Virus record (IMG/VR): IMGVR_UViG_3300027628_000012
From: a virus
DNA: 64,000 bases
Strand: one strand, 5' to 3'
Shown: positions 6,155-41,697 of the stretch, piece by piece
Position numbering within the stretch: the first letter of the stretch is position 1
Layout: every line of letters begins with the position of its first letter
Notes under the pieces: model-generated
Databases searched by the model: none
Told to the model about the DNA's origin: nothing
The model's input: only the letters and a program-made list of their open reading frames with translations
Made by a program: the position numbers and the translations under genes

Positions 6155-6486
6155 GTTTGAATTGATTAAGGAATATGTTAATTATACCTAACAAATGAGC
6201 AAAAGAGAACCCAAATACCTTATTTTTGTGTTATAAGAAAAGTAGAGAAAACGAACGTGTTTTCTTTTTTATATCGATGTTATTTGGTATCGTGGAAAAT
6301 GTAGAAGAAATTAGAAGTCCAGTAATAGGGCGTTTAATTATATTGCTAATCGGGTAAGTATATGTGCTGTGTGTTGGAGAGCCAAAGATGTATTGAATAT
6401 ATAGCTTTCTTATTGAACTGTATTGAAGACGAATTAGGAGATTAATAAATATATAGCTTACGTTTAGTTTATATTTAATCTGCAGA

Positions 6487-18667: not shown

Positions 18668-21600
18668 TCAAAGGAACCCATTTACAAAATTGTTTTTTTG
18701 TTGCTCGTTCCATGGTGTGAATCCTTCTGAAAAATTCCCTTTTTGTCCCGTCATTTGTCTAGTTAAAGGATTATCAAGTTTATCTTTCATTCCTAAAATT
18801 GTCGCTTCTCCAATGGTGCGTGTAGCGTCCCTATATGAGGAGGTTTCAAGCCAGTTTTGAGAAGCAAGATCTACTGTAGATACTCCGCTTAACGTTTGGT
18901 CAAATTGCAATGGTTTCTTTTGTACTTTAATATGAGGACGGTTTTTCAACTGTTCCCATGCAGATTCTGTAATAATGCTTCCTTTTTTTACAATAATTTT
19001 CATTGGATTTCGTATGTCGCTATAATCTTGAGCTGCAATCGCTCCAATGACATTCATTCTGTTCGCATAATCCGTGGGAACGGAAACTACTTTACCTGCT
19101 TGTTGATTGTACTTATTCAAAACCTTCACAGGGACTACCTGACCGCTAGCAAATGGAGACGTTCCTGGATCAGTTACAACAGCTTTGCCCATTAGGTTAG
19201 AAGTGGCCACTTCATAATGGCGTCGGTCTGTATTCGTGATATCCCCTTTGCGATATGCTTCTTCCAAGCTATCAGTTAGATACTGTTTTGCAACATCAGG
19301 ACCTTGGTACATAAGCACATCATGAGGATTACGAATCGTTACACGATCACCGTTTGCATCAAACTCTTTCGTAAGAAGGTCACCACGTTTAATCGATACA
19401 CCTTCTTTTACATAATCCGCAAGCGGTTTTTTATTAAGCTTATATTTTTTCTTATCAACCGTTACAATCGTTCCAGTTAGCGGATCTTTTGTAATACTTG
19501 TGATGACTCCATCTTTCTCAGCGATAACTGCCTCTACTTCAGAGTTTGTAAGATTCTTAGGCAAACGTAGAATCTCTTGAATACGGTCAAATGCACCTGA
19601 TGCACTACTCTGTGCACCACCGACATGGAACGCCTTCATAATGGCCTGCTGACTCGGCTCTCCAAGCGCTTGGGCAGCGATTGAACCAATTGGACTACCA
19701 ATCTCTACGAGGTCGTTTGTCGTGCCGCCTGGTCTAGTTCCGTAGCATTTCTGGCATACACCAGAAGAAGACTTACAAGTTAATGGACTACGCACATTTA
19801 CCTTGCCTTTTGCTCGGGTACGAATCATCTCCTCTTGTTGAACAGTAAGAGGGCGGCCAGTGGCTTTGATAGATCCTCCTTTATCTAATGGAACGTCTTT
19901 TAGAAGGACACGACCATGAATGGCACGCTTATCAGCATCAACATTCATATCTAAATTAACTCCAATCGTATCTCCGCAATCTTTTTCAGAAATAACTGTT
20001 CCTTTATTCGTCATCCATAACTCACGAGTTAAAGCTCCAGGCTTCTCAGATTCAATTGATTTATCGAGAATACCTTTCCGGCTATCATAAGATAAATCCC
20101 AGAACTGATCTGGTGTTAATCCATCTAAGTGGGAAGCGTTGATAGGTCGAGTCATTTCACCTGTTACACTTTTACCGACACCTAGAATACCGCTCATTGC
20201 GTTAATTTGGCCAGCGTTACCCCTTGCACCAGAAGACCTCATAATTTCTATAGGGTTATTAGGGTCAAGGCTGTTTTCAATAAGCTGTTTCATCTGACCT
20301 TGAACAATTTGAGACTTCTCTTGTTCCATCGCATCCTGAGCATCAATCATACCGCTTGCTAGCTTATCCTTATACTTTTCTTTAAGCTGCTTATCAGCAG
20401 CAGCAAACAGTCCATCCTTATCAATCTTCCGTACTTCATCAAAGTCTCTAAATCCAATACTAATGCCCGATGTAGTAGCAGAGTGGAAGCCTACATTTTG
20501 TAGACGATTGATTGTTTCAACAGCTTTCATTGTTCCACCACCGCTTTGAGCATTGATAATGTCCATTAAGATGTTTTCCATCTTCTTTTTATTGATGTCC
20601 ACATTATCTTTATAGTTCTGGAAGCCACGAGGTAAGCTGAGATTAAAAATGTGACGACCTGCAGTAGACGTTACTTGACCTAGACCAGGTACATTCATTC
20701 TGACAGCATCATACGTTTTCACTTCACCTTTATGGTAAGCAGCTTCTAAATCTTTTAGTGACTTAAACTCTTTAGGAGTGCCTTCGGGCATGCGATCACG
20801 TGTCATATAGTAAATACCTAATTGCATCTCATGTTTTAAATCGGTTATTAAACTATTATTTGTAGGGTTTAATAAATTTTTAGATGGTAAAAGTTTTTCT
20901 TCCGCTTCTTTAATTGCATCCGTTGTAATCGGAAGGTGAACAGCCATCGTGTCCCCGTCAAAATCAGCATTGAAAGCTGTTGTTACTACAGGGTTTAAAC
21001 CAATTGCACGTTTCTTTACGCCATCTTCATTCCACAAAATTTTAGGATAAAAAGCTTGCAAGGAATGTCGGTGTAGAGAAGGTTGACGATTTAAGATTAC
21101 CGGACGAGCGGCAGATACTTTTTCTAATGCACGACGATACTCAGGTGTATGATGCGTCATGAACTTTTTAATTTCTTTCGTGGAATATCTCTGTTTCTGC
21201 AATTCTCTCAAAATAAGCGGCTGGAACATTTCAGCAGCCATATCCTCTGGAAGGGCTACTTCATCTAGTTTAAGTGTAGGGTCAACAGCAATTACAGAAC
21301 GTCCAGAATAATCTTGAAGCTTTGTTTGCATCTTCGAACGAACAAAGCCACGTTTTGATTTCAATGTATGCATGATCCCTTTAATATCTTGGTCACGCTT
21401 ATCATCTTTAAATGCAGGACCAACGCCAATAATGTTCTTAATCGAATTGTAGTAATCAGACTTCGCACCGCTATATACGGAACGATCCCATTTGAGAGGG
21501 TCACTGCTTTCCGCTTTTTTCTTATACTCTTCATTCTGTTTAAGTAGGTTTTGATAAAGTTGAGAAATCCCATCTTCAGCAAATGTCTTACCACCATTCA

Positions 21601-24600
21601 TTGAAAGAGGTTTGCGGTATTTGAGTGGAAGTACTGGTACAGATTCCATTAGAAAATCTGTTGGTTCTAATCCCTTGTCTAAAGCACGAGATAGAGCCAT
21701 CACATGCTTTTGTGCTAAAGAACGTTCTGGAACTGTTCTAGCCTCTTTTAAACGCTGTTCAGCATTTTTTAATTCTGTTGTTAAATCTACACCTTCCACT
21801 AAACGAGTAAGTGCAGATCCGCCAGTGTCAGCCGTAACATCTTTTCCTGCAAGCTGAAGCTTATCCAACTCAGTCATATCGACTAATTGATTTTCCTCAA
21901 GTCCTGAATCTTTTGGATCGAATACAACAAACTTTTTACCATTTACAATCTCTTTAATATCTTTCTGGCGCAATCCTTTTGAAAGCAGCATTGCTTCATA
22001 AGGACGTGAACCTTGATCGCTTTCTAAGAAGAGAGGATTTGGAACAGGTTCAATTAAATCAATGCGGCCCCAATGATCTCCGTTTTCTCCAAAAATAGTG
22101 GGATCATAAATACCGCCATCAGCAAACGTATTTGTTCGTGCCTTTAATCCTTTCGCTGTAGTGACAGGAGCAGCACCTAATTTCTTCAGTTCATCCCGTT
22201 TCATAGGGTTCAACATTAGCTCAGTGAACTTATCATCTAAGGTTACTTCCTTATCATCACGTAGCGGCGTCATACTTACACCAGCTGCATATAGCTTATC
22301 TTGCAGCACTTTAAGCGATTGTGGAGTTACAGGGTCAGGAACAGGAACACCTTTACGAATAGCATTAAAGATTTCAGCACGTTTCTTTTTGTCGCCAGCA
22401 CCATCAGACTTTAACGTAGTCATTTCGTGAATATTGTGTACCGCTCCAGCAGAGGTTAATGACCAGAACTCCATACCACCGACACCCTGCGGATTGTGGC
22501 GATCTCCATCAATGTTACCGCTCGTTTTACGAGGTGACTGTAATTCTTCACTAATTGCACCACGCATATTCCGCTGCGTAATCTTTCCTTCAACCTTATG
22601 TTTTAGCTTTAAGATATACATTGGTCCCACAGTTACAGGATTTTCATAGGGTTTACCTGTTTCAGGGTTGATTAAGGTTTGCTTACCGTCCGGCATACCA
22701 ATGTCTTTTAACTCCTGTTCTAGCTTTTCACGTTGACTAGAATCGAAGTTTAAAACATTGTATGAAGATTTACCTTTCTTCTCAGCAACTAAGCCAGCAT
22801 TGACTTCTAGAAGCTGTCCGATATTTTTTCGACTCGGAACGGCAAGAGGGGAGAAGATTAACTCAATGGGTTTACCATCGGTTTGGTGAGGCATCTCTTT
22901 ATCTGGAACAATCTTAGTAATTGTCCCTTTATTACCATGACGACCACTCAGCTTATCCCCGACCTCCATAGGTTTGAAGGAAAGGAGCTTGATTTGAGCT
23001 TTTAAGTTACCTTCACTAGTAGGTGTCACATTTACGCTAATGACCTTCCCTTTTTGATAACCAACGACTTTTCGGCTCACATCCTTATATATATCAGACG
23101 GTAATTCGATGATTTTGTTTCGCATCATGCGACGAATATCTTTTTGACCAGCAGATAGGTCTTCTTTTTCTTTTACCTTAACAGCGGCTACAAGATAATC
23201 TCCGGCAGTTACATCCGTTCCTTTTTTAATAATCCCGTTTTCATCTAGTTTGCCTAGAATACCCGGAGAAACATGCAGATCCTTTAGCAGCTTCTTAGCT
23301 TCAGGTGTACCGAACTTCACTTTGCCTTCCTGGTTCTCTAATTCAAATTCAATCGTCTTAACTTCTTCACTTGCCATTTTCTTTGCAAAGCCCTCTGAAA
23401 CTACTACACCATCCTCAAAGTTGTAGCCTTGCCAAGGCATGTAGGCAACGCGGATATTACGTCCAAGTGCTAGCTTTCCGTCCTTAGATTGCCATCCGTC
23501 AGCAAGTAATTGATCTTTTTTGACCTTATCACCAACTTGTACAACAGGCTTGTGGTGAATGTAACCACCGGATTTCCCCGTGGTAAAATAATTCAGTTTC
23601 TTTACTTTCTCTGTTCCGCTGCCTGTATCAACTTCGATATAATCATCGGTAATTTTCTTTACCGTTCCAGCAACAGGAGAACGTAGGATATTAGAAGCTC
23701 GTTCTGCCATTTCTTCTTCAACCGTTTTACCTGTTACAGGATCAGAAACACTTTGTACAAGGGGAGCTTCAGGGTTTTCAAGACTAAGAGATTGCTTCTG
23801 CATACCTGCGCCCATTAACATACGCGCACCATCGTTATGGCTTCCAAAAGGGATAAGAGCAGTCGAATGACTCATGTGGGCAGAGGAGCTGGAGTCGATT
23901 AACGTTACTTTGTTGCGGGGGACATTTTCGAATCTACCTTTATGACGAACTCGAACAGTATCATTCTTAAAACCTGTGATTCTACCATTATCGTCTTTCG
24001 AAAGGGTAGGAGGGGTGTTGAATGCAATGTATTCCTCGAATTCATCGAGCGGATCAATATCATCAATCACTTTAGAGGTATCAATCTTACCATTGGTCAC
24101 TCGGTAAAATTTAGAGTAGAGACGACCATTTTTAACTGTTGCTCCAGATGCAAAATGTTGCACTAATCCCATTCGTTGAGATTGTGGCGTTTCAACCGCA
24201 TCAATTTTAGCAAACGCTGTATCTTGTAGGTTACGATTATAGTTAGAAGCGGCACGGGTAGATAAACCGCCAGTACCTAAAGAAGTCACCTTATAAAGCT
24301 TTTGGTGGAGGTCTAAAGGATTCGATGTATCAACTAATTCAGCAATGTCACTTTGATAGAGCTGTTTTGTACCTTTATAAATATATTGGTCAGGCTTTGC
24401 GTTCATCGTCTGACGCTTTTGTTCATTCATATCCGTATATGTTATGCGGCGAAGACGGTTATTAATCCATTCTCTAATACCTTTTCGGACATATTCCCCA
24501 ACTGTATCTTCTGGCGATTTGATTTCTTTAAAACGGAAATCGTCAGGATCTGGGGAAACACCAGGCTTCTTATACTCTTTTACAAGTTGAGAGATGGTTC

Positions 24601-25393
24601 CTAAAAGGGCAGTTGCATCAAATGAACTAGCACTTTCACCAATCGTTTGCTTATTTAATTTCTGAGAGTCTTCGCTGAATGTAAGGTTATTATTCATGAA
24701 GTCTAGGATTTGTTGCTTTGCTTCTTCATCACCAGGAAACTCTTTTGCAAAAAAAGCACCATAGATTTTACGTGGTGAAGTAGTAGTAGCGTTCTTCATA
24801 AATGAATTGTAAAGTGTTTCATTATTAATCGCCTGCTTAATTTGATCATCAGTTACACCTAGAAATCTTAGAAAGGGAATAACGTCGATTTGGCCAGGAC
24901 TTGTTTTACCATAGTCCATGGATAAATCGGATATTTTCATTTGCCCTCTATTTGTATCGAAATCAATTTTGAAGCGCTGATAGCCAGCTCTTACATCAGC
25001 TGTGAGCATTTGAGTGCGATTGACGTTACGAACAGGGCGTACAAAGATACCGTTTCGTCTTTGCATGCGATTTAATACAACAATTTCATTACCTGCAGTT
25101 ACATAGCTGCCTCGATCTGTTGGATAAGGGACACGTGTTAAAATCGTTTTCTGTGACTTAACAAGCTTATCTTTAAAGTAAACTTCAACCGTACCACGTA
25201 CCACTGCTTCAATAGAATCATCGTTTAAAAAGGCTTTTTGTTGGTCTTCATATGTGACGGAAGGCTCTTTGATTTCAATATCTTTCACTTCAAAACGATA
25301 ATCTCCGCGTTCAAAAGGAAATGCATTGTTGAATTCGTTGATTACATTAGCCTTTAATTTGGCAACTGCCTGTTCATGATTAAACTTTTCCAT
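18668..25393 (-). CDS. rpoBC: Single-chain fused beta-beta' multisubunit-type DNA-directed RNA polymerase (2241 aa)
   Basis: Beta motifs RMLMGAGMQKQ, GYNFEDG, GDKLSGRHGNKG, LKLKHKVEGK, GMEFWSL. Beta' motifs DYSGRSVI, LNRQPSLHR, catalytic NADFDGD (20951-20971), SGARG, CKSSSGVCQKCYG Zn site, trigger loop GEPSQQAIMKAFHVGG. Confidence 0.97.
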   Translation of the reverse strand: MEKFNHEQAVAKLKANVINEFNNAFPFERGDYRFEVKDIEIKEPSVTYEDQQKAFLNDDSIEAVVRGTVEVYFKDKLVKSQKTILTRVPYPTDRGSYVTAGNEIVVLNRMQRRNGIFVRPVRNVNRTQMLTADVRAGYQRFKIDFDTNRGQMKISDLSMDYGKTSPGQIDVIPFLRFLGVTDDQIKQAINNETLYNSFMKNATTTSPRKIYGAFFAKEFPGDEEAKQQILDFMNNNLTFSEDSQKLNKQTIGESASSFDATALLGTISQLVKEYKKPGVSPDPDDFRFKEIKSPEDTVGEYVRKGIREWINNRLRRITYTDMNEQKRQTMNAKPDQYIYKGTKQLYQSDIAELVDTSNPLDLHQKLYKVTSLGTGGLSTRAASNYNRNLQDTAFAKIDAVETPQSQRMGLVQHFASGATVKNGRLYSKFYRVTNGKIDTSKVIDDIDPLDEFEEYIAFNTPPTLSKDDNGRITGFKNDTVRVRHKGRFENVPRNKVTLIDSSSSAHMSHSTALIPFGSHNDGARMLMGAGMQKQSLSLENPEAPLVQSVSDPVTGKTVEEEMAERASNILRSPVAGTVKKITDDYIEVDTGSGTEKVKKLNYFTTGKSGGYIHHKPVVQVGDKVKKDQLLADGWQSKDGKLALGRNIRVAYMPWQGYNFEDGVVVSEGFAKKMASEEVKTIEFELENQEGKVKFGTPEAKKLLKDLHVSPGILGKLDENGIIKKGTDVTAGDYLVAAVKVKEKEDLSAGQKDIRRMMRNKIIELPSDIYKDVSRKVVGYQKGKVISVNVTPTSEGNLKAQIKLLSFKPMEVGDKLSGRHGNKGTITKIVPDKEMPHQTDGKPIELIFSPLAVPSRKNIGQLLEVNAGLVAEKKGKSSYNVLNFDSSQREKLEQELKDIGMPDGKQTLINPETGKPYENPVTVGPMYILKLKHKVEGKITQRNMRGAISEELQSPRKTSGNIDGDRHNPQGVGGMEFWSLTSAGAVHNIHEMTTLKSDGAGDKKKRAEIFNAIRKGVPVPDPVTPQSLKVLQDKLYAAGVSMTPLRDDKEVTLDDKFTELMLNPMKRDELKKLGAAPVTTAKGLKARTNTFADGGIYDPTIFGENGDHWGRIDLIEPVPNPLFLESDQGSRPYEAMLLSKGLRQKDIKEIVNGKKFVVFDPKDSGLEENQLVDMTELDKLQLAGKDVTADTGGSALTRLVEGVDLTTELKNAEQRLKEARTVPERSLAQKHVMALSRALDKGLEPTDFLMESVPVLPLKYRKPLSMNGGKTFAEDGISQLYQNLLKQNEEYKKKAESSDPLKWDRSVYSGAKSDYYNSIKNIIGVGPAFKDDKRDQDIKGIMHTLKSKRGFVRSKMQTKLQDYSGRSVIAVDPTLKLDEVALPEDMAAEMFQPLILRELQKQRYSTKEIKKFMTHHTPEYRRALEKVSAARPVILNRQPSLHRHSLQAFYPKILWNEDGVKKRAIGLNPVVTTAFNADFDGDTMAVHLPITTDAIKEAEEKLLPSKNLLNPTNNSLITDLKHEMQLGIYYMTRDRMPEGTPKEFKSLKDLEAAYHKGEVKTYDAVRMNVPGLGQVTSTAGRHIFNLSLPRGFQNYKDNVDINKKKMENILMDIINAQSGGGTMKAVETINRLQNVGFHSATTSGISIGFRDFDEVRKIDKDGLFAAADKQLKEKYKDKLASGMIDAQDAMEQEKSQIVQGQMKQLIENSLDPNNPIEIMRSSGARGNAGQINAMSGILGVGKSVTGEMTRPINASHLDGLTPDQFWDLSYDSRKGILDKSIESEKPGALTRELWMTNKGTVISEKDCGDTIGVNLDMNVDADKRAIHGRVLLKDVPLDKGGSIKATGRPLTVQQEEMIRTRAKGKVNVRSPLTCKSSSGVCQKCYGTRPGGTTNDLVEIGSPIGSIAAQALGEPSQQAIMKAFHVGGAQSSASGAFDRIQEILRLPKNLTNSEVEAVIAEKDGVITSITKDPLTGTIVTVDKKKYKLNKKPLADYVKEGVSIKRGDLLTKEFDANGDRVTIRNPHDVLMYQGPDVAKQYLTDSLEEAYRKGDITNTDRRHYEVATSNLMGKAVVTDPGTSPFASGQVVPVKVLNKYNQQAGKVVSVPTDYANRMNVIGAIAAQDYSDIRNPMKIIVKKGSIITESAWEQLKNRPHIKVQKKPLQFDQTLSGVSTVDLASQNWLETSSYRDATRTIGEATILGMKDKLDNPLTRQMTGQKGNFSEGFTPWNEQQKNNFVNGFL

Positions 25394-25725
25394 TATGCAC
25401 GACCTACCTTCCTTTTTCTAACTTGGTAATCCACTACAACAATTGAACCGTCTTCTGTAGGGAAAACATGTTGCTTTATAATACGTACATCTTTATCTTG
25501 CAGCAGTTCATCAAGCTGATGATCATCCTGTTCAACCCGGAATCGCTTCAGATAACGTTTGAATTTGGTTTCTCGTTCTTCGCATGGAGAGAATCGTAAG
25601 TTTGCTGTGGTGTAGCCCGTTTCAAACGAGCAGGAGATTTTTAGGGAGATTAAGCGCAGACAAGGGTTGTTGAGAAGTTCGTTTGCATTGGAGGCGTAGA
25701 TTGATAAGTCAAATACACGAAACAT
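25393..25725 (-). CDS. Hypothetical protein (110 aa) between portal and RNAP
   Basis: ATG 25725 one nt after the portal stop; its TAA overlaps the RNAP ATG (TAATG). Confidence 0.65.
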   Translation of the reverse strand: MFRVFDLSIYASNANELLNNPCLRLISLKISCSFETGYTTANLRFSPCEERETKFKRYLKRFRVEQDDHQLDELLQDKDVRIIKQHVFPTEDGSIVVVDYQVRKRKVGRA

Positions 25726-25726
25726 C

Positions 25727-27685
25727 TTACACGCCACCTTCACGACGAGGAGGAAGTTGTGTTGGCATTGGCCTCATATCCGTTTCTGTTCCTTCCTCAG
25801 CTTGTAATTGATTATAGAACATTAAAGCGCGTTGTGCTGTAGCTTGAGGGAGCTTAGAGATAGCATTTGCCCTCTGCGCTTCCGACATGTTCATAAATTC
25901 CTGCGCAATCTTTAATGCTTCTCGGTTTTGAGTTCCACCACTACCAGAGCGTCCCTTAGGCTCTTCCCTGCGCTCCCCTTCTCCTGGGGTAGATGGTTGT
26001 CCGGTTGGTTGGTCAGATGGTTGTCCCTGCTGAGGAGTGCCCTCTTGTTGAGGATCTTCTTCAGATTCATATGCACCAGGAGCCGGTTCAGGAATTTGAG
26101 GACCGTTAGCTGGGTCAACTGGCGGCATCTGTCCTTTTTCTGCTGCTATTTGCTGCATTTTTTCATTCATATCCATTTGACTCAGTTGCAACTCGAATTG
26201 CTCTTGAAGCTTACGCAAGCGCTCAGATTGTAGCTGCTTGACAACCTTTGTAGAATCTAATCCGAGAACTTTCTCGTACATGATTTCGTCTGGAAGTTTT
26301 CCTTGTTGATTAAGGTTAATCATTAGCTGTTTTTGTTGGATGTCATCTTGCATTTTTAATTCACTAAGCTGTACTTTTACAAGCTTTTCGTTATCATCAA
26401 TGGTTTCCCATTCGCCACGAATTTCCGCTAATCGTTTAATAAGGAAATTGTTAATGTAGTGGAGTAGTTTTGTGCGGTAGGTGATGAAGTGATTCTCAAG
26501 GATACGTAAAGAGGTGGTAGAACCGGAGTAAGAGACACCGCCGAAGATAAATTCTCGTGGAACTCCCATAGCAGCAAGGATGGTTTCTTGCAGCTGTTCC
26601 AATTCAGGGACGAGAAGTAATGCTTTCCCTTGACCGCCATGTTGGATTTGTTGAATAGGGAGGGGGCTGATAATTTGATAGTTTGGATCATCAAGCTGTT
26701 TTTTTAACTCAGAGGCAAAGTCATTAGCAATATCAGCAAAATCCATTCCAGGAGAAAATTCTTGAGTTTCGTTAAAGTAATAGATACGGCGGGGCACTAT
26801 ATGTTCATAAGCCAGCGCCTCTTGAGCCTGTCGTAAAACGTTGCTATAGAGTATAAGCTTCATAGCATGGAGAACGGGGGGAGTAGCCCAAAGTCCATCA
26901 TCACCAGATTCAGAAGGCATTTGCATGTGATACACGTATTCGCTTTTCAACCTTACAAGGCCACGCTTCGCAACCGCATCCTTAAAGATTTTTGGTATCT
27001 TATCGTATTTTTCTTTCGGCTTTTGCGTTTTAATAACTCGCTTTAATTCAGGAGGGATATCATAGAAGTACATTTTCTCTCCTGATTTTGGGTCTTTATC
27101 AATCTTTAAACGGGTGAGATCAAGTCGTTGCACGCTTTTCCATACAACTTCTTTCTTCTGAATAATCTCACCTGTTTCAGGTACTCGACGCTTAACGATC
27201 TTAACGCCGGGTTCAGCAAAAACAACCATGTTACCGTATAAGAAATAGTCATAGCCGACTTCGTTCATATGAGTATATAAATCTATATCTTCACTTAAAA
27301 TCTCGTCATAGAATTTATATGTCTCACTTGGCTCTTCACTATCTGTATCATTGGTGTCTACGTCCTTTTGGTCAGCCTCTTCTGTATCATCAAGTATCCA
27401 ATCCGTGATTGGAAAGGTAGCGAGAGAACGAACAGCGGAACCAATCAAAGGGTCAAACTTGAAAAAATATCTACACCATTTAAAAATCTCTTTATAATCA
27501 TCGGGAATTTGCATATCTCCTAGTGTAAGGAAGGAGGAGCGGTACTGTTTATAAGCGTTGTTGCTCATTGTTGAGTTAGGATGAGCAACCTTTACGTGAC
27601 CGCTAGATGTTCCCGTCAATTTATCTACAAATTTAGCCATTTTCTCTTCCATTTTGGAAATATCATTTTGTTGATCTTTATCCAC
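25727..27685 (-). CDS. Probable phage portal protein
   Basis: 652 aa; DPLIGSAV, DYFLYGN, ILAAMGVPREFIFGG and coiled-coil/Gln-Pro-rich C-terminus typical of portals; lies in the terminase block. Confidence 0.7.
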   Translation of the reverse strand: MDKDQQNDISKMEEKMAKFVDKLTGTSSGHVKVAHPNSTMSNNAYKQYRSSFLTLGDMQIPDDYKEIFKWCRYFFKFDPLIGSAVRSLATFPITDWILDDTEEADQKDVDTNDTDSEEPSETYKFYDEILSEDIDLYTHMNEVGYDYFLYGNMVVFAEPGVKIVKRRVPETGEIIQKKEVVWKSVQRLDLTRLKIDKDPKSGEKMYFYDIPPELKRVIKTQKPKEKYDKIPKIFKDAVAKRGLVRLKSEYVYHMQMPSESGDDGLWATPPVLHAMKLILYSNVLRQAQEALAYEHIVPRRIYYFNETQEFSPGMDFADIANDFASELKKQLDDPNYQIISPLPIQQIQHGGQGKALLLVPELEQLQETILAAMGVPREFIFGGVSYSGSTTSLRILENHFITYRTKLLHYINNFLIKRLAEIRGEWETIDDNEKLVKVQLSELKMQDDIQQKQLMINLNQQGKLPDEIMYEKVLGLDSTKVVKQLQSERLRKLQEQFELQLSQMDMNEKMQQIAAEKGQMPPVDPANGPQIPEPAPGAYESEEDPQQEGTPQQGQPSDQPTGQPSTPGEGERREEPKGRSGSGGTQNREALKIAQEFMNMSEAQRANAISKLPQATAQRALMFYNQLQAEEGTETDMRPMPTQLPPRREGGV

Positions 27686-29573
27686 GTACTACACCTTCTT
27701 CCTTAAGCTTTTCTAAGGTATAAACTAATTCTTGATGTTTGTATTCAAGAAAGATACCAGCCATAAAGTGAGCGACTGTTGTTTCAGCTGCCATATTCGC
27801 AACGCCAGTACGGAAATCAGCATCTACAGGCTCAAGTAAACCATTTCCTAAAACTTTCTTAATGGATGTGTAAGGATCATCAACTTGTATTTGTTCAGCA
27901 TGCTCTTTCAGTACATCATCGGCAATCTCAGTAATTTGGGTAGTCATGGTGTGTTGTTGGTCAATGCCAGCTTCATCTAAAACACCTTGAGCATCACGTT
28001 CTTTCCATTTCCGTGCTAAAAAGCCATTTACACTTTTGAAGAAGTCTTTTTCAGAAGGATTGTCTTCATCATAAAGCTGATTCGATACAAAGCGAACGCC
28101 TTCATTCATTAGTTCCTCAGATACGTAAGCGGCGATATTGTCATGGAATTGAAGGAATACTTCATCTCCGTCATACGCTTTTGCTACGTCCAAGCCAAAT
28201 AGAATCTCTTCAAAAGAGAGGTTACCTTGAAATTCTTCAAATAAAATACTTTTGGAATTAACGCCTCGTATAAATTTCTCAAAGGTGAGGGGAGCCTGAT
28301 ACATCGTGTGTTCTTCTGAAGAAACGGTGTGGAGGATGGAAATCTTATTTAATGGATTTTCAGCAATACCATTACGTAACTCGAAATCTATTTCAATTTG
28401 CTTTAATAAGGCTTCAAGTTCATACCTAGCCCAATCTTCGCCATATCGTTCATTCAATACAACATCATAAGCAACAGGGTGAATATCAGGATCTTGGAAC
28501 AAGTCCAGGCTTTCTCGTTCGACTACTGGAAACTCTTCTTCAACTAGATCTTCTACAATATCTTCAAGAGAAGCAGCATCTTTTACGAAGTCGTCTTGAT
28601 CTTCATGAAACGTATCAAATGTAGCTGTCTCTTCTTCAGATGTACTAGCGGTTTGCTCTCGTGGTTTAGGAGCCTCCAGTTCCTCAGTTGTTTCTTTTGT
28701 ATGTTGTTTAAAGAAATCGATGAAAAACTGCTTGTCTTTCTTTTTAAACGCTTCATAACCTTCTTCATTCATTCGTAAGAGAGGTAATTGTTCAATTAGT
28801 TGCCCATTCCAGGTATAAACAACGCGGTCTGGTAAAAATCCTACATTGACTTCTTGATTAATTCGATGGAGACTCACATCTTCAGAACGATTCTCGTCAA
28901 ATAAATCAAAGATACTTGCTACTTTCGATAATTCATTTGGGTTAAAAAAGAAGTGACAATGTTCAAATGGTCGAATGGTATCAAAAGAAGGGTTAAGGGT
29001 GAATGTCACGTTATCTAAACCGCCGCTTGCTGTTTTCATCATACCGTCCATATGTTCAGCAGCTACTTTAACCAAGGCATCTTGTTTAGATATATAACTT
29101 GCTTCTTTTGCTTGCTGGTTATAACCACCTGCAGCTAGGAGACGTTGGGCAAAAGCTTGTTCTGCCAATTGCATTTCCATATTGATTTTATTTACTAATA
29201 AATCGCGGAAATAGTTAGCATTCTTCTTTTGAAATTCAGTACGCATATAAGGATTCATTTCATCAGTAGAGATGATTTCAAATACTTGGCCGTTAACACT
29301 GTAAATGACGTTAATGGGCGTGAAAACAATCTTCAAGTCCCTCATAATACTTTCAACCTGAGAATACGCATTATTTTCGATAGTACGATTCTTTAATTCT
29401 TGCTCTTGTTTTTTATCCTGTGACTTTTTGTAGTGAGCATTTGCAGCATAGCCACCAGCAATCGAGCCTAAAACGGAAGCAGGGTCAATGCTTAGGTTAA
29501 ATGCAACTTTCTCTGCAAAATCGCCATATATTCGATCAGCTAGTTTAACTTGTACATTTGGAATTTTAATCAA
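27678..29573 (-). CDS. Putative virion protein (631 aa), K-x-A-rich with an internal duplicated segment
   Basis: KLA, KVA, KEA, KTA motifs; LKIVFTPINVIYSVNGQVFEII resembles VNVGFLPDRVVYTWNGQLIEQL. Confidence 0.55.
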   Translation of the reverse strand: MIKIPNVQVKLADRIYGDFAEKVAFNLSIDPASVLGSIAGGYAANAHYKKSQDKKQEQELKNRTIENNAYSQVESIMRDLKIVFTPINVIYSVNGQVFEIISTDEMNPYMRTEFQKKNANYFRDLLVNKINMEMQLAEQAFAQRLLAAGGYNQQAKEASYISKQDALVKVAAEHMDGMMKTASGGLDNVTFTLNPSFDTIRPFEHCHFFFNPNELSKVASIFDLFDENRSEDVSLHRINQEVNVGFLPDRVVYTWNGQLIEQLPLLRMNEEGYEAFKKKDKQFFIDFFKQHTKETTEELEAPKPREQTASTSEEETATFDTFHEDQDDFVKDAASLEDIVEDLVEEEFPVVERESLDLFQDPDIHPVAYDVVLNERYGEDWARYELEALLKQIEIDFELRNGIAENPLNKISILHTVSSEEHTMYQAPLTFEKFIRGVNSKSILFEEFQGNLSFEEILFGLDVAKAYDGDEVFLQFHDNIAAYVSEELMNEGVRFVSNQLYDEDNPSEKDFFKSVNGFLARKWKERDAQGVLDEAGIDQQHTMTTQITEIADDVLKEHAEQIQVDDPYTSIKKVLGNGLLEPVDADFRTGVANMAAETTVAHFMAGIFLEYKHQELVYTLEKLKEEGVVRG

Positions 29574-29646
29574 TTAAGACACCCCTTTAATATTCGCTCG
29601 TGTTCATTAGCTTCATTCTAACAAAAAAAGCGCCTTGAAATGGCGC

Positions 29647-29952
29647 TTATAAAGAGCTATCAGACATAATAGATGAGTTGATTTTAATTGGAAAACGAGG
29701 TTCAAAACCATTGTCCGTTGTAAGAGCAGCCTCTATGTTTTGAGTGAAGAAGGCACGTATGCCGCCTTTTTCAGGATCATAAGCAAAGAGCTTTCCATCT
29801 TTAATTTCATAAGGCTCTATTTTACGAACAGATAGTTGATTGTCTTTGTCGCGGTATCGAATAGCAATCATCTGCTTGTTAGCAGCTCCATTCATAATGC
29901 TATTCCAACGCTCATGAGGGTTTTGGTCAGTGGGAAGTTTAAGAAGGTCCAT
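29647..29952 (-). CDS. Stand-alone WYL-domain protein
   Basis: IAIRYRDKDNQLSVRKIEPYEI...LFAYDPEKGGIRAFFTQNI follows the WYL (Sm/SH3-like) pattern I-x-Y...R-x-I-x-P...R-x-F. Confidence 0.7.
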   Translation of the reverse strand: MDLLKLPTDQNPHERWNSIMNGAANKQMIAIRYRDKDNQLSVRKIEPYEIKDGKLFAYDPEKGGIRAFFTQNIEAALTTDNGFEPRFPIKINSSIMSDSSL

Positions 29953-31426
29953 TTTTGGGGTTCTCCTCTCGTTTGCTTTTCATAGCCGCTAATCCGGCTA
30001 ATCCTCCTCCAGCGGCAAGTAAACCGCCAGCGCCAGCCTTCAAGCGAGCGTTCGCCGTCTGTGTTTCTAAACCTTTAACTGTATCGTCTAATTCGTTTTT
30101 TGCTTGGGTTGTGTAGCTATCAAATAGACGATTTGTAAATTGTCCTTTTGAATAATCATCTTTAGCTAAATTGCCGTAGTTCTCTTCTAATAACTTAGGA
30201 ATGTTTTCATTACGCAAACGAGTAGCGGCAACATCAGCGGGATTCTGACCCTTTAATTCATCGATTTGTTTACCATATCCCTTGAAATCTCTAGCAAACT
30301 GCTTTAAGCCATTGAAAGAGGGGAGAGCTGTCTTTTCCAAATCCTCTGTCTTTTCCTGGGCAAGACGTGGGAGACCGGATAAACCCATAGGCATAGCTGA
30401 ATGCTTATCGCCAGGTCTAGGTTGATCATCTTTTCCTAACTCAATAATTACGCGAGTAGATTGGTTATCTGTATCTTTATCAGTACCATCTTTAGGGGAA
30501 CGAGGATCTTGTCCATTTAAAAGCTTTGCTGTACCTAATGAGATACCAGTAAAACCAATACCACTAGCCACAGCTTCGGGAGTCTTCTTAGCAATGCCAC
30601 CGAGCCCTTTATATACATCAAGAGAACTAGCTGATTTATTCATCGAATTATCCTCCTTCTTTTTTAGAAAACTACCTGCATGATGAAAGGTATCTTCTAG
30701 CTTCTTTTGATTATCCGGGTCAGAAGATGCGCGATCTAGGGCATGAAAACCTGAAATGCCTGCGCCGAATGCGGTACCTGTCAATCCAGCACCTACCATG
30801 TCTTTTGCGACTTGTTTCTTATTGAATAAAGGTTTCGCATTTTCTTTCTTCCGAGGAGATTTATTAGTAATAGAGGCTTTATCTCCATATAGTTGTTTCT
30901 GAATTTCTTCATCACGAACCTTTTCGTACAAAACTCTTGCTCGTGCTTCTGGATCAGTATTAGGAAAACGGGTGGAACCATCTATTGCTTTATCAACAAC
31001 GTTACGACTCTGTTCTTGCTGTAAACGACGAGATACTTCATCACGAATACGTTTTTGGATTTCAGGGTTCGTATCTACTTCTTTAACGCCATTTCCTAGA
31101 ATAGCACCTAATTGGTCAGCACCTTCACGTCCTGTTGGTTTTGGCATCATTCTTAGGTTTTGAAGAACTTTTTTACCTACTTGATAACCAAACTTTGTTT
31201 TCATGCTACCGTTACGTTTTAAGTAATTCTCGAACCCTTTTCCTGCTGCACCTATAGCACGCTTACCATTACGGAAAGCACCGCTAAAATCACCTTTAAC
31301 AGCTAATGTACCAGCGCCAGTTAGAATCGTCCCTAAAGCGGCTAATTCTACGGTGTTTTGGAGCCATGAATCTTTATAGTTTAGATTCTTATCACTACGT
31401 TTAGGTTCCCACATGTTATCAGCCAT
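29939..31426 (-). CDS. Putative virion protein with Gly/Ala-rich hydrophobic segments
   Basis: ALGTILTGAGTLAV, GAGLTGTAFGAGISG, AGAGGLLAAGGGLAGLAA; KSA and KTA motifs. Confidence 0.55.
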   Translation of the reverse strand: MADNMWEPKRSDKNLNYKDSWLQNTVELAALGTILTGAGTLAVKGDFSGAFRNGKRAIGAAGKGFENYLKRNGSMKTKFGYQVGKKVLQNLRMMPKPTGREGADQLGAILGNGVKEVDTNPEIQKRIRDEVSRRLQQEQSRNVVDKAIDGSTRFPNTDPEARARVLYEKVRDEEIQKQLYGDKASITNKSPRKKENAKPLFNKKQVAKDMVGAGLTGTAFGAGISGFHALDRASSDPDNQKKLEDTFHHAGSFLKKKEDNSMNKSASSLDVYKGLGGIAKKTPEAVASGIGFTGISLGTAKLLNGQDPRSPKDGTDKDTDNQSTRVIIELGKDDQPRPGDKHSAMPMGLSGLPRLAQEKTEDLEKTALPSFNGLKQFARDFKGYGKQIDELKGQNPADVAATRLRNENIPKLLEENYGNLAKDDYSKGQFTNRLFDSYTTQAKNELDDTVKGLETQTANARLKAGAGGLLAAGGGLAGLAAMKSKREENPKNGPS

Positions 31427-31441
31427 GTTACCACCTTCTTT

Positions 31442-31729
31442 CTAATTTTTATTGTAGGGATTAGCGGATTTCATTGGAGATGAAAATTTAGGCTTTGAAC
31501 CATTGACTCTCATTTTTGGTAAGGTGGGTAAATCTGTATTCGTCAGATCGGGAGCTGGTTGAGAAGGACTTGTTAAGACAGGTGGTTTATTTGTTCCTTT
31601 AAGTTTTGGAAAAAGAGGGGTAGTAGGAGGTTTAATGCTATCAAGTGAAGGGAGCTTCGGGAGTGCGGCTTGTTTATCGAGCATCATTCGCAAATTCCGA
31701 GCTCTTCTTTGAATATCCAATGTCATCAC
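31442..31729 (-). CDS. Pro-rich small protein
   Basis: RBS AAAGGTG; LDKQAA motif followed by a low-complexity Pro/Lys tail. Confidence 0.55.
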   Translation of the reverse strand: MMTLDIQRRARNLRMMLDKQAALPKLPSLDSIKPPTTPLFPKLKGTNKPPVLTSPSQPAPDLTNTDLPTLPKMRVNGSKPKFSSPMKSANPYNKN

Positions 31730-31789
31730 CTTTCTTTTTTACAGCTTCATATATACATATTGTAAAGGATTTTACCTAACAGAGGGCAT

Positions 31790-31815
31790 AAAAAAACGCC
31801 CAAATAAGGGCGTTT
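31790..31815 (-). terminator. Rho-independent terminator
   Basis: AAACGCCC/GGGCGTTT stem with an A-run on + (U-run on -). Confidence 0.75.
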
Positions 31816-31832
31816 CCTTTAGAAATAAATGC

Positions 31833-33449
31833 TTATCGACCATATTGGTTAAGGAAGCTTTCAGCTTCAGCATACGCCTCAATAGCTGCTTGCTTTTGAA
31901 GTTGAGCTTGCTCAAGTAAGTGAGCTGTTTTATCAACATCATACTTACTAGGATTGTTTGTTACGTTATATCCAGCAGTGTCTTGAGCTTTTGTTGATCC
32001 AGGCTGTAAGTTACCTGTTTCAGTTTTACGTTTTTCTTCATCAATGTGTTCTTCAACTTGCTTTTTAGCGTCAGTTAATGCACCGCCAACACCCTTCGCG
32101 GCAACACCGTCAGCGCCTGCAATTTTTTCTAGTTCATCAGCAGAAGCATCATGAGCTGCAATGAAAAAAGCTACTTTATCGAATAATTCTTCATTGTGCT
32201 TTCCAGCTACGATTTCATGTAGTTGGTCTTCAGAATACAGTTCTGTTGCTACCTTTACGAATGCGTCTTCCATTTCTGCTCTGCTTAAACGAGAGATGTG
32301 ATTGAATTGTTCTGCTGCTTCTTTACGTAATTCATCTTTAAATTCTTCGTTATTAGCAATGTTTAATAGTCCAGCGGCACCTGCAATTTTTAAGAAATCT
32401 TGAACAACTGATTGTTTCATGGCTTGTTTGCCTCCTTCATAATAATTACCTTTATTTTGATAACTAGCTGTTTTCGAAGCTTCTTCTTCGTCAGGGTGGG
32501 TAGCATCATAGATCTTTTTACCGCCGAATAAACTACCGGCTGCTAGACCAGTACCACCAGCTCCCCAGCCAGCTCCTCCCATTACAACTTTCTTTTTAAT
32601 GTCATCTACATTTTCATTAGCAGCTGAAGAAGCCTTTGTTGCATCAACCTGCTTCTGTCTAAGGTTTGTTAACTCTTCACCAGTGGCATTAACATTATCT
32701 GCTGCTGTAACAGCATTAGTAGTAGCTTGTGAAGCTTCTTGAGCAAGACGGTCAGCTTCAGCTTTAGCAACGCCTAATTCATTTCTAAGTTTCCAGAAGT
32801 TTTTAGTAGCGTCGCCAAATTCTTTGATCGTATCAACAGCTTTACCAATTACGCTGCCAGCTTCAAAAGCTTCTTTAGAAAACTCTTCATCATTAGCAAA
32901 TGAATCAAGAGTCTCGACTACATATTCCATACCTTCTTGCGTATATAGAGCATTAAGGTTAGCTTCATCTTCAAAAAGCTCAGTAGCCGTCTTTTGTAAT
33001 GTTTCATAGAATGAATCTTCGCTAGATAAAGCGGTTTGAAGTCGTTCTTTAGCGATTTTGTGGAGAATAGGGTCTGAATCTGAATTAGTGGAAAAATCGA
33101 TGAGTTTTGCGAAGGCACCCATTGCTGGAAGAGAGTCACTAATAACTGGAGCTGCTACTTTCTCAAACTCGTTGTATTGCTTCTCTACTTCAGCTAAATG
33201 TTCCTGGGCTGCGTGGAGTTCTTGTTCTGCTGAATCAATCGTATCATTTAGAGCTTCTACATCTTCAGGAGAAGGGGGAAGCTGTTCTTCAGCATCACTT
33301 GAATCAGCAGGTTCTGAGTTAGCTGCTTGTTCTGCCTCTATTTCCTCTGGTGGAATAGGGGGCTTGGGATCTTCTAACATAGGATCTTGATTGTCCTCAG
33401 GGATAATTTCATTAGCAATTTTCTCTAAATCTTCAAGATAGTTATCCAT
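31833..33449 (-). CDS. Putative virion/head protein (scaffold- or ejection-like), 13 K-x-A motifs
   Basis: Acidic helical protein with KIA, KVA, KTA, KEA, KQA repeats and a Gly-rich GGAGWGAGGTGLAAG segment. Confidence 0.55.
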   Translation of the reverse strand: MDNYLEDLEKIANEIIPEDNQDPMLEDPKPPIPPEEIEAEQAANSEPADSSDAEEQLPPSPEDVEALNDTIDSAEQELHAAQEHLAEVEKQYNEFEKVAAPVISDSLPAMGAFAKLIDFSTNSDSDPILHKIAKERLQTALSSEDSFYETLQKTATELFEDEANLNALYTQEGMEYVVETLDSFANDEEFSKEAFEAGSVIGKAVDTIKEFGDATKNFWKLRNELGVAKAEADRLAQEASQATTNAVTAADNVNATGEELTNLRQKQVDATKASSAANENVDDIKKKVVMGGAGWGAGGTGLAAGSLFGGKKIYDATHPDEEEASKTASYQNKGNYYEGGKQAMKQSVVQDFLKIAGAAGLLNIANNEEFKDELRKEAAEQFNHISRLSRAEMEDAFVKVATELYSEDQLHEIVAGKHNEELFDKVAFFIAAHDASADELEKIAGADGVAAKGVGGALTDAKKQVEEHIDEEKRKTETGNLQPGSTKAQDTAGYNVTNNPSKYDVDKTAHLLEQAQLQKQAAIEAYAEAESFLNQYGR

Positions 33450-34440: not shown

Positions 34441-36084
34441 TCAAGAAGCACGAACAGATGTAAAGCCTCTCTTCTTGCTTTTTCCTTCTGGTGTAAAGCT
34501 TCCTTGTTTGTACATAAGAGAAGCAAACCAAGCATAAAAAGTAGAGTGGTAAGCGTCATCTGGTTGTGATAAAGCGTGTCCATAAAATAATTTCTCCGCT
34601 AACCCATTTGTAGACTTGCGGTACTCACTGTAAATAGCAGTGAAATTATCATGGAATACGTTAACCATACCTTCATCATTTTTTCCAAAAAGACGTAGGT
34701 TTCCATCGTGTGCAAAGTCCACAAAGTCAGTCATCCAATCGGATCTCTCGATAAGGAATTTAAACTCGTTCTGATCATAGTTGATTTTTTTCTTTTGCTG
34801 ACCTACATATTGTACTTGTGCAAAGCGTTTACCTAATTGTTTACGCAATCTTTTATTCTCTTTAACACCAGCCCCGTAGTCGGCTATGATATAACGGCAT
34901 CTAAATGAATCTACTACATTATGAATAGTTTTCATCTGAAAGTCAGGGTCTAGTTCCTTGCCTTTTTCGAAACGTTTAGCATAAAGAATTTGAAATTTAC
35001 CTTCAGGGTTGTAAGCACCAACAGTTAAAACAGTATATCCCGTTCCACTCTCACCATTCTTTTCGCCTTCGCCCCAATCAATACCTAAAAAAGTTGGTAT
35101 GTTGGCAAAAGTTGAGTTTGTAATAGTAGTCATCATAGAGAAATCACGGTCAGTAATCTCCATCATGAAATCTTTTGTAAATGGTTTATCCGCTTTTTCG
35201 TAAGATTCGCCAAGTACTTCGTTCTTTAAGCGTAAGAGAGGGTAGTTTTCAATCTTGTCGAAGATATCGCCCGGGTTAATATCCGGCACCATCATTTGTG
35301 TAATACGGAAACCTTTTCGTTTCTTTTCTGGATTACGATGTTCCCAGCGGCCCATTGCACGAGCGATATCAGGAAGAGGTTTATGACATCGAGGGTTTCG
35401 GCAGATGAATTGAGTAGGAGTAACACTTTCTATTCCTAAAACTTGATGCTTAGAACAATGAGGACAACGGATAACCCAATCTGCTTGAGAAGATCCGTCC
35501 CATAATTGTTGTATGGTGTTCGCGAACGTTTTGGGAGTACCAGTGTAGATGCGGTGCTTCTTTTTAGCACGGGCTTGAGTCTCTAGTATGACGGGGATAG
35601 AATCTACGTTAATATCCTGAATTTCATCGATACAGACATCCTGAATACTGAGTCCACGGATATTATCTGCATCGTCATAGCAATTGCGCATATAGATTTC
35701 AGCGCCGTTTAAAAATTCTTTATGAAACACTTGATCTACTAAGTCAGAGCTCTTGTAACGCTTGCGTACCAAGTCATTTTGACTGTAACGGAATAGTTTA
35801 TCTAAACGTGCTCTAGAGAAGGTTTTTACTTGTTCATTTAGAGGAGCAACATATAGAGAAGTGGAGAAGGGGCGAAGAAGTACGTTGTTTGCCATTTTGA
35901 CAGAAATAGTGGTTGTCTTTTCTACTTGTCGTCCTGTCATCATAAGGATTTCTTCCAGTTCGGCCTCGTGAATAGGCTTTAAATAATTTCTTCCCTGTGT
36001 GAAGCGTAAGGGCTGACCGTTTAGCTTGTACATCGATTCAGCAAAGCCCATTGGCTTTATATCAATGCGATCAATTAGGGCCAT
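34441..36084 (-). CDS. terL: Terminase large subunit (lambda GpA-like architecture)
   Basis: MTGRQVEKTT (Walker A-like), VCIDEIQD (Walker B), GTPKT coupling motif, CPHC...CRNPRC Zn site, FLGIDWG RNase H nuclease; ATG 36084 after AGGTG. Confidence 0.88.
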   Translation of the reverse strand: MALIDRIDIKPMGFAESMYKLNGQPLRFTQGRNYLKPIHEAELEEILMMTGRQVEKTTTISVKMANNVLLRPFSTSLYVAPLNEQVKTFSRARLDKLFRYSQNDLVRKRYKSSDLVDQVFHKEFLNGAEIYMRNCYDDADNIRGLSIQDVCIDEIQDINVDSIPVILETQARAKKKHRIYTGTPKTFANTIQQLWDGSSQADWVIRCPHCSKHQVLGIESVTPTQFICRNPRCHKPLPDIARAMGRWEHRNPEKKRKGFRITQMMVPDINPGDIFDKIENYPLLRLKNEVLGESYEKADKPFTKDFMMEITDRDFSMMTTITNSTFANIPTFLGIDWGEGEKNGESGTGYTVLTVGAYNPEGKFQILYAKRFEKGKELDPDFQMKTIHNVVDSFRCRYIIADYGAGVKENKRLRKQLGKRFAQVQYVGQQKKKINYDQNEFKFLIERSDWMTDFVDFAHDGNLRLFGKNDEGMVNVFHDNFTAIYSEYRKSTNGLAEKLFYGHALSQPDDAYHSTFYAWFASLMYKQGSFTPEGKSKKRGFTSVRAS

Positions 36085-36098
36085 AGTAATCACCTAAT

Positions 36099-37283: not shown

Positions 37284-37370
37284 TGTGCTCCTCCTTTCTG
37301 CGACTTCTTATTACGCTTATTGTATAGCAAAATTACCCTATTTTCTTTTCGGTTTATCCTATAAAACACG

Positions 37371-40899: not shown

Positions 40900-41697
40900 T
40901 TAGTTTGTTGTTTGATCGTACCAACGTCTCATGATTTTACGAACCTCCGCTGTACTTAATCCAAGAGACAGAGCAACTTGTACAAAAGGTTGACCTTCTT
41001 TTGTAACTAAATTGATAACCTTCTGTTCAGTGGGGGTGAACGTTTCGGAAATCTGTTGTTCTTGCTCTTCCTCAAACATATCAGCGAATAAATCATCTTC
41101 TGTAATACCTTCATCATGATTAAATTGATCCTTAAACGTCATTGCTTCTTCATCATCTTCATCACCATAAACAGCATCACCTAAAAAGCTATTCACATGG
41201 TATGTTTTAATCTTATCAAAATCCATCGTGGCATCGGAGGGATAGAACTGCCTAATTTGCTCTTCGGTTGGATTTCTTCCATATTCCATTTCAGCATCTC
41301 GAATAGATTGTCTATACCTATTTAAGTCGTCATGCTGGTTACGAGGAACGTATGGACCAATCATGTTTTCTCTGACAGCATTTTTGAGATAACCCTTTAG
41401 ATTACTAGTGATGTAGGTATTCAATTTAAAGCCACGATTAGGGTCAAATCCATCTAATATTTGAGGGAGATAAGTGTCAGCACGCATGCGTAAATTAGAT
41501 GCGGAAACAGTATTTCCACTTGGTATGGCGTCAGCGATTGCCTTCTCCACTAAAGGACGTAAAGATATCCTTAATTTTGTATAAGCTTGTGGATCTCCAG
41601 CTTGATATTCTTTGACCAATTGTAATTCTTCTTCTTTAGAGAGTTGCCCAGGCATTAGATCAAAAGCCATTTTCAAAAAAGTAAAATCTCGGTTCAC
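40900..41697 (-). CDS. Sigma70-family RNA polymerase sigma factor (divergent)
   Basis: LSKEEELQL (region 1.2), FDPNRGFKLNTY (region 2.3), YGRNPTEEQI (region 3), C-terminal HTH (region 4). Confidence 0.82.
   Translation of the reverse strand: MNRDFTFLKMAFDLMPGQLSKEEELQLVKEYQAGDPQAYTKLRISLRPLVEKAIADAIPSGNTVSASNLRMRADTYLPQILDGFDPNRGFKLNTYITSNLKGYLKNAVRENMIGPYVPRNQHDDLNRYRQSIRDAEMEYGRNPTEEQIRQFYPSDATMDFDKIKTYHVNSFLGDAVYGDEDDEEAMTFKDQFNHDEGITEDDLFADMFEEEQEQQISETFTPTEQKVINLVTKEGQPFVQVALSLGLSTAEVRKIMRRWYDQTTN

Follow-up and report, generated by a model that had tools for sequence, protein, structure and literature searches.

Can a phage transcribe its genome with an RNA polymerase (RNAP) of bacterial type that is made as a single chain and has no alpha subunit of its own? 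The question is raised by a 64,000-nucleotide stretch of virus DNA, IMG/VR record IMGVR_UViG_3300027628_000012 (hereafter the window), in which one minus-strand gene, termed P0001, joins beta and beta' subunit sequences. An earlier note, made from the letters of this DNA alone, had described the gene as a fused RNAP. Our analysis indicates that this open reading frame (ORF) almost certainly encodes a DNA-dependent RNAP that is the phage's own, with its catalytic core complete. From comparative data, we also consider it likely that the enzyme uses a private sigma factor, is independent of alpha, and is delivered by the virion.

P0001 is one stop-free ORF of 2241 amino acids (aa) at positions 18668..25393 of the minus strand. 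Nine cellular Pfam domains match it, with E-values down to 4e-69. Rpb2_3, Rpb2_45, Rpb2_6, and Rpb2_7 are found at residues 354-1042 and are followed by Rpb1_1 to Rpb1_5 at residues 1055-2078; that is, beta precedes beta' in the bacterial order, and the uninterrupted reading frame described by the earlier note is real. Pfam matches and alignment together delimit a beta module (residues 1-1045; 22259..25393) and a beta' module (residues 1046-2241; 18671..22258), both on the minus strand, like all features of this gene given below.

The earlier note had located the junction between the two modules at 22200-22350, and both of the strings that it quoted fall inside this interval, at 22202..22324. 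There, the beta C-terminal motif PQSLKVLQDKLYAAGV (residues 1024-1039; 22277-22324) is followed by a spacer of ~16 residues and by the beta' N-terminal motif FTELMLNPM (residues 1056-1064; 22202-22228), an assignment made from alignment and a structural model. The junction sequence is kept throughout the phage family. In the predicted model of residues 900-1420, which has a mean predicted local distance difference test (pLDDT) score of 79 and scores of 81-96 for residues 1020-1260, paired strands cross the beta/beta' join, and the modeled fold resembles the bacterial beta' N-terminal clamp. The junction is therefore predicted by the model to be ordered, rather than to act as a floppy linker. 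The C-terminus of beta adjoins the N-terminus of beta' in bacterial RNAP.

The catalytic elements were compared with those of Salmonella (E. coli numbering), Staphylococcus aureus, and two further Firmicutes. In beta, the motif GYNFEDG (23408-23428) retains E813 and D814, and GRHGNKGTITK (22913-22945) retains K1065 and K1073. In beta', the motif NADFDGD (residues 1475-1481; 20951-20971), the bridge helix (20015-20083), and the trigger loop (GEPSQQAIMKAFHVGG, at about 19616-19666) are intact, and all four Cys residues of the second zinc site (19970-19987 and 19739-19783) are present. The alignment thus agrees with the earlier note, which had listed these beta' elements, including a C-terminal zinc site, as intact. 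Within the trigger loop, Met and His are retained, and Arg is replaced by Lys. The E. coli insertions SI1 and SI2 of beta and SI3 of beta' are absent, as they are from Firmicutes enzymes.

One feature overlooked in the earlier note is the deletion of the beta' N-terminal zinc ribbon, which in E. coli is formed by C70, C72, C85, and C88. The alignment has a gap of ~33 residues at this site (IFGENGDHWGRIDL; 22055..22096), residues 1046-1130 of P0001 contain no Cys, and the deletion is common to all 12 of the aligned phage sequences. The rifampicin pocket in beta (24263-24352) has also diverged, with substitutions Q513E, F514L, H526K, R529K, S531T, and I572V. Because these substitutions fall at known resistance positions, we predict that the enzyme is probably insensitive to rifampicin.

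The earlier note had proposed a phylogeny against bacterial and phage RNAPs as a check, and this places the phage enzymes outside Bacteria. The concatenated tree comprises 63 rows and 1997 columns and includes 24 bacterial references from ~ten phyla. A branch of length 0.94 with 100% support separates all 24 from every phage sequence; the natural Helicobacter fusion falls among Bacteria. Two clades are distinguished among the phage sequences. Clade A contains the window protein, and its source names point to Firmicutes (Priestia, Paraclostridium, and Herbinix); clade B consists of 2015-2190-aa forms, with the phages Arash and Vibrio D69 nested inside it. An approximately unbiased (AU) test rejected a clade uniting the phage sequences with Firmicutes (p = 4e-5). 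In a beta-only tree rooted on archaeal B subunits, Bacteria are recovered with 98% support, and all phage enzymes are their sister group with 96% support. This sister group includes beta proteins of ~1370 aa (P0138-P0142), which sit on a very long branch (1.96) far from the clade of the window. These proteins were equated with one gene-size type of the previously described mReC lineage by matching sizes only (P0142 has 1369 aa, and the longest contig is 20,022 bp).

The description of the enzyme as close to cellular, which the earlier note had offered, holds with qualifications. P0001 is far nearer to cellular RNAPs than are the enzymes of phages phiKZ and AR9, as its nine Pfam domains indicate. 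However, its identity to bacterial subunits is only 28-31%, it lies outside Bacteria, and it scores under all NCBIfam equivalog cut-offs (561 vs 963 for rpoC, 486 vs 896 for rpoB, and 639 vs 5372 for the fusion model NF007172). By its sequence relationships, P0001 represents a phage lineage and not a captured host gene.

The family to which P0001 belongs is extensive. A word-indexed search produced more than 100 cluster representatives of 2000-2350 aa, each covering the whole query. With the beta half as query, an exhaustive search yielded 11,889 hits, of which the nearest ~25 representatives of 50%-identity clusters are nearly all 2114-2817 aa long; the shorter ones look like fragments. In IMG/VR, 553 relatives were confirmed by a scan based on an alignment. 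A single ORF covers the whole beta-beta' match in 79 of the 80 best IMG/VR loci; thus, the fusion is no assembly artefact. The relatives' contigs are up to 208 kb long, several have terminal repeats, and each complete relative carries one gene with a beta'-type catalytic barrel. We conclude that this is one coherent phage lineage with the polymerase gene in its morphogenesis module, not a one-off, and that the family is very large and mostly uncultured.

Full fusion is the commonest state in this family, and the architecture is labile, because unfused beta chains and beta + beta'N chains nest among fused forms in clade B. This clade includes unfused beta genes (P0148 and P0149) and chains of the Arash type. 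The clade B locus L176, on a 169,335-bp ENA contig, has separate genes for a beta of 1096 aa and a beta' of 983 aa; they are 6 kb apart and not beside a recognizable portal gene. Closer to the window, P0024 (1478 aa, on a 78.9-kb contig; 72-74% identical) is annotated with beta and only part of beta', which suggests that beta' is recurrently split or interrupted even inside the window's subclade. Other members, namely P0023 and P0036 (2733 and 2751 aa), P0107 (3020 aa), and P0151, carry inserted LAGLIDADG or Hom_end (intein-type) domains.

These comparisons bear on two proposals of the earlier note that we do not retain. One was that the fusion may replace alpha-dependent assembly. It is generally known that cellular fusions, such as that of Helicobacter, occur together with alpha. 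Conversely, Arash and D69 have no alpha gene despite a split beta', and locus L176, which the alpha searches did not cover, has separate beta and beta' genes. The split enzymes of phiKZ and AR9 likewise have no alpha (PMC7598289). Fusion may aid assembly without being the enabling change. The other proposal was that of a distinct phage transcription system. In the sense of a unique one, this is not so: such fusion is the usual arrangement across a huge metagenomic phage family that is related to the mReC lineage and to the cultured phages Arash and D69, and the window gene is one more member of this widespread family. What is new is the fully fused, Firmicutes-associated clade A, a form of a phage polymerase lineage that has been known only phylogenetically. 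A search of open-access papers and preprints found no description of a fused phage beta-beta' enzyme; the only enzymes covered in jumbo-phage reviews from 2020, 2021, and 2026 are split and without sigma.

To our knowledge, an alpha dimer is the required platform for assembly in every well-studied sigma-dependent RNA polymerase. The window contains no alpha gene, as the earlier note had stated: a hidden Markov model built from five bacterial alphas gave a best E-value of 0.34 against six-frame ORFs (leave-one-out controls scored 1e-106 or better). It has no omega homologue either. The earlier note had also suggested that the rest of the genome be searched for alpha and omega; four complete relatives with terminal repeats were used in place of the phage's own genome. 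None of them has a match to the Pfam models for alpha (PF01000 and PF01193) or omega (PF01192), which were positive in 14 of 14 control genomes, archaea included. The complete genomes of Arash and D69 likewise contain no alpha or omega homologue.

The phage sigma factor that the earlier note had placed at 40900 is a genuine sigma-70-family protein. The gene (40900..41697, minus strand) encodes P0327, of 265 aa, the likely specificity subunit. P0327 matches the phage sigma family phrog_351 (E = 6e-15), and residues 77-258 match group-3 sigma models (FliA/WhiG and SigB/F/G) at ~1e-10, always below cut-offs. When an AlphaFold model of the protein (mean pLDDT 70, from a four-sequence alignment) was used as a Foldseek query, the top 50 matches listed were all sigma factors, with ~255-270 columns aligned. 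Homologues of P0327 are present in four of five related genomes (G001-G003 and G005), and a sigma-family profile has a single match in Arash (gp10) and a single match in D69. The sigma lineage is thus inherited together with the polymerase.

P0001 keeps both elements on which sigma docks, the beta' clamp helices (21419-21571) and the flap-tip segment of beta (23096-23158), in forms that have diverged from the near-invariant bacterial sequences. Region 2.2 of P0327 is itself non-canonical. Because the docking elements are non-bacterial in sequence and sigma region 2.2 is non-canonical, we infer that P0001 and P0327 are likely a co-evolved private pair.

The position of the RNAP gene is informative with respect to the virion. 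It shares a minus-strand block with genes for the large terminase subunit, the portal protein, a PhoH-like protein, and the sigma-like protein; plus-strand blocks encode a helicase, a primase, and SbcCD-like nucleases. The terminase gene (34441..36093, minus strand; phrog_675, E = 3e-58) belongs to the morphogenesis block, and the portal gene (25727..27685, minus strand; identified by family match) is directly upstream of the RNAP gene and the small ORF that precedes it. Of 81 related loci, 64 have a portal homologue upstream of RNAP and on its strand, and the order from portal to RNAP is kept also in Arash and D69. When Arash virions were analyzed by mass spectrometry, gp206 (beta + beta'N) gave 3516 spectra, the top count of all proteins; the major capsid protein gave 1333, gp216 (beta'C) gave 1210, and the sigma factor gp10 gave 467 (PMC10585845). 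By analogy with crAss gp66 and P23-45, whose genes are similarly placed, the location of the clade A gene among virion genes makes it likely that the polymerase of the window's clade is packaged in the virion. The gene for the N4 virion polymerase is likewise placed among virion genes.

Two repeated motifs stand out in the window. One consists of AAAAGTGTTATAAGA, 3-4 nucleotides, and GTrGAGA, with copies on the plus strand at 6227-6251, 11405-11430, 45299-45325, 52656-52680, and 63926-63950; weaker copies are at 44757 (plus strand) and 37306-37317 (minus strand). AAAAGTGTTATAAGA resembles the Gram-positive extended -10 element (TGnTATAAn). It has no -35 box, and G is at -7 in every copy; the consensus of sigma-A promoters has T at this position. 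Together, AAAAGTGTTATAAGA and GTrGAGA are a candidate phage-specific promoter class.

A second motif, TAATCTACTATGTTGT, is represented by exact repeats of TAATCTACTATG(TTGT) on the plus strand at 891-906, 1298-1313, 3101-3116, and 3983-3994. The TAATCTACTATG repeats sit 15-40 nucleotides upstream of ribosome-binding sites within the first 4 kb, and we regard them, with TAATCTACTATGTTGT, as a candidate second class of promoters or operators. When two mismatches were allowed, neither repeated motif was in excess over shuffled sequences; only the exact, longer copies stand out. The TGTTATAAGA motif, sought in 170 related loci, is absent from the loci of close relatives. Matches to sigma-70-type promoters in 17000-33000 number 28, which is fewer than in shuffled sequences (39.4 +/- 7.4).

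The reading that we favor, and that we judge to be probable while well short of established, is that P0001 is an alpha-independent single-chain phage polymerase that has a private sigma and is probably carried in the virion. The P0001 core would assemble without alpha and would combine with the phage sigma (40900-41697) into a private holoenzyme for phage-specific promoters. The polymerase would be made late, alongside the structural proteins, packed in the virion, and delivered with the DNA; early transcription would therefore be independent of the host enzyme. A more far-reaching version is a self-sufficient two-protein machine, in which a single-chain core without alpha, omega, or zinc ribbon works with its private sigma, is carried by the virion, and split off before the bacterial radiation. 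This version we judge to be somewhat less likely than not.

Several points weigh against these interpretations. Clade A is known from genes alone, and a virion proteome exists for Arash only, whose polymerase is only ~27% identical to P0001 and has a split beta'. Because the Arash virion list is very inclusive, with 116 proteins that include ribonucleotide reductases (PMC10585845), carry-over from the lysate is possible. The sequence evidence could also be compatible with recruitment of host alpha. Because AAAAGTGTTATAAGA looks like a Gram-positive extended -10 element save for the G at -7, the host sigma-A enzyme might read some phage promoters. Finally, the trees were built with a quick method and contain several long phage branches, and fast viral evolution could inflate the placement outside Bacteria.

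Some of these points would be accommodated if the fused enzyme were a middle or late polymerase that is not injected, with host sigma-A RNAP transcribing the early genes and the fused enzyme and phage sigma acting late only. The host-like appearance of AAAAGTGTTATAAGA on the plus-strand (replication) blocks is consistent with such a division of labor, as is the fact that the virion evidence comes from outside clade A and from a very inclusive list. Nevertheless, we consider this arrangement unlikely, if worth serious attention. The RNAP gene is in the morphogenesis block past the portal gene throughout the family, so a late-only enzyme would be encoded in the very operon that needs it for transcription, and there is a single RNAP gene per genome. 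Moreover, RNAP spectra exceed even those of the capsid protein in Arash particles, all motif copies have G at -7 instead of the T of sigma-A promoters, and sigma-70-type matches in the 17-33-kb region are below the shuffle level. The sigma-like protein might instead redirect host RNAP, as do SPO1 gp28 and T4 gp55, in which case the fused enzyme would use an initiation factor that is not recognized in sequence, or none. Many phages that lack an RNAP encode sigma factors for capture of the host core (PMC7824862 and PMC7598289), and the factors used by the enzymes of phiKZ and AR9 do not resemble sigma in sequence. We find this improbable, given that sigma and RNAP have been inherited together in both clade A and clade B, that both proteins are found in Arash particles, and that non-bacterial docking elements and a non-canonical region 2.2 fit a co-evolved pair better.

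Two other explanations concern the core enzyme itself. The fused chain might still require a host alpha dimer, and perhaps omega, for assembly, as cellular fusions do. It is general knowledge that such fusions (Helicobacter and, among our loci, L111) occur in genomes that keep alpha, and the missing phage alpha gene is uninformative on the use of host alpha. However, P0001 is far from every bacterial RNAP, at 28-31% identity and across the 0.94 branch. The hosts of the family range from Firmicutes to Gammaproteobacteria, and a single conserved alpha interface is unlikely for this reason. A packaged enzyme would need the host subunit to be packaged as well, and the non-virion RNAPs of phiKZ and AR9 are active without alpha (PMC7598289). 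A hybrid enzyme of this kind therefore seems to us a poor prospect. We see practically no chance that what is read as one ORF is an artefact of assembly or a host rpoB-rpoC operon captured recently. The domains do follow the order of the bacterial rpoBC operon, but the single ORF recurs in 79 of 80 independent loci, and a 97% identical copy is on a separate 180-kb contig. Both trees place the phage enzymes outside Bacteria, grouping with Firmicutes is rejected by the AU test, and the zinc ribbon is lost family-wide. The fused loci, the trees, the AU test, and the zinc-ribbon loss refute this candidate.

The alpha-independent, single-chain reading can be set against the phage and cellular RNAPs described previously. 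Nearest are the enzymes of Arash (gp206 + gp216, with sigma gp10; OQ632216; PMC10585845) and of the Vibrio phages D69, D181, and D148, which belong to the same phage RNAP radiation, in clade B. As in P0001, beta of Arash and D69 is joined to beta' at the same junction and the beta' zinc ribbon is absent; these phages also share the gene order portal, small ORF, RNAP, have no alpha gene, and encode a homologous sigma. Unlike P0001, they have a beta' that is split after the catalytic barrel, giving a 1527-aa beta + beta'N chain and a beta'C chain of ~607-609 aa. Their identity to P0001 is ~26-27%, and their hosts are Gram-negative.

The mReC lineage (Weinheimer and Aylward 2020; PMC7481178) resembles the present family in that the genes are on tailed-phage contigs, beta and beta' are recognized by cellular profiles, and the sequences branch outside cellular clades, a position that our rooted beta tree reproduces. 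However, mReC beta and beta' are tabulated as separate genes, of ~1360 + 1005 aa or ~1020 + 920 aa, and that paper is silent on fused forms, sigma, alpha, and virion association (PMC7481178). Hallmark genes of mReC are a gp23-type capsid protein (PF07068) and a PF03237 terminase. The terminase of the 97% identical relative has a weak match to PF03237, and no capsid gene was identified among the window ORFs that were scanned with family profiles.

Like P0001, the enzymes of phiKZ and AR9 (PMC7598289 and PMC7824862) are phage two-barrel RNAPs without alpha or omega, and one of the two enzymes is carried in the virion. In contrast to the one chain of P0001, each of their two large subunits is divided among two or three highly divergent polypeptides, which makes 4-5 in total. 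Each genome has two enzyme sets and no sigma-70-family factor, whereas the window's family has one RNAP and a sigma. The crAss-like gp66, P23-45, and YonO enzymes carry both barrels in one polypeptide, as does P0001, and those of crAss and P23-45 are encoded among virion genes. Unlike P0001, these three are too diverged for cellular beta/beta' profiles (PMC7481178); they are without most cellular domains and use no sigma. The cellular rpoB-rpoC fusions of Helicobacter and Wolbachia (NF007172 and NF011417) have beta and then beta' in one chain, like P0001. However, they are ordinary bacterial enzymes of ~2900 aa that have the zinc ribbon and occur in genomes with alpha and omega, and P0001 does not group with the Helicobacter fusion.

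If the proposed reading is true, no simpler bacterial-type holoenzyme than this pair of a core chain and sigma would be known, and the need for alpha, omega, and the beta' zinc ribbon could be tested directly. The enzyme could also be used as an orthogonal tool for expression that is probably insensitive to rifampicin. Phage metagenomes contain the family very commonly; therefore, many of the big phages may transcribe independently of the host in a manner not yet represented by any cultured model. The placement outside Bacteria bears on the debate over the age of viral RNA polymerases.

The nearest protein to P0001 is 97% identical and comes from an assembly of Priestia megaterium, where its contig has 180,101 bp, and a 71% identical protein is on a 174,545-bp contig, also from Priestia megaterium. 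Among public sequencing runs, the window DNA is present only in plant, soil, and rhizosphere metagenomes, and no RNA run searched contains it. Because of these close relatives in Priestia megaterium assemblies and the plant and soil occurrence, the host is likely of Priestia/Bacillus type. A scan of GTDB genomes with the polymerase returned cellular rpoB/rpoC only, with no link to a host, and these sequences were used as a reference panel.

The RNAP gene is the last of a run of four minus-strand genes that abut or overlap. The run begins with a 631-aa gene with no assigned function (27678..29573) and continues with the portal gene and a small ORF of 110-116 aa (25393..25743) that lies between portal and RNAP and overlaps the RNAP start. 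The small ORF is conserved in the closest relatives only and has no family match. Arash gp205, which occupies the same position, has no BLAST similarity to it and is not in the Arash virion proteome list (PMC10585845). The small ORF was considered as an omega-like subunit, and this was rejected in view of its narrow conservation, the missing family match, and the absence of gp205 from the proteome. A weaker terminator-like hairpin (18424..18446, minus strand) lies past the RNAP stop codon. Elsewhere on the minus strand, the gene for the PhoH-like ATPase (40132-40899) adjoins the sigma gene, and the two are probably co-expressed.

A strong terminator-like hairpin with a T-run (29628..29648, minus strand) is just upstream of the run that starts with the 631-aa gene. 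This hairpin is in one of two intergenic regions of the virion block, at 29573-29647 and 31729-31832 (minus strand), that have the same arrangement: a terminator hairpin, then GTTAG, and later ATGAAGCT. The ATGAAGCT-type element, with its two occurrences only, may be a third, late promoter motif.

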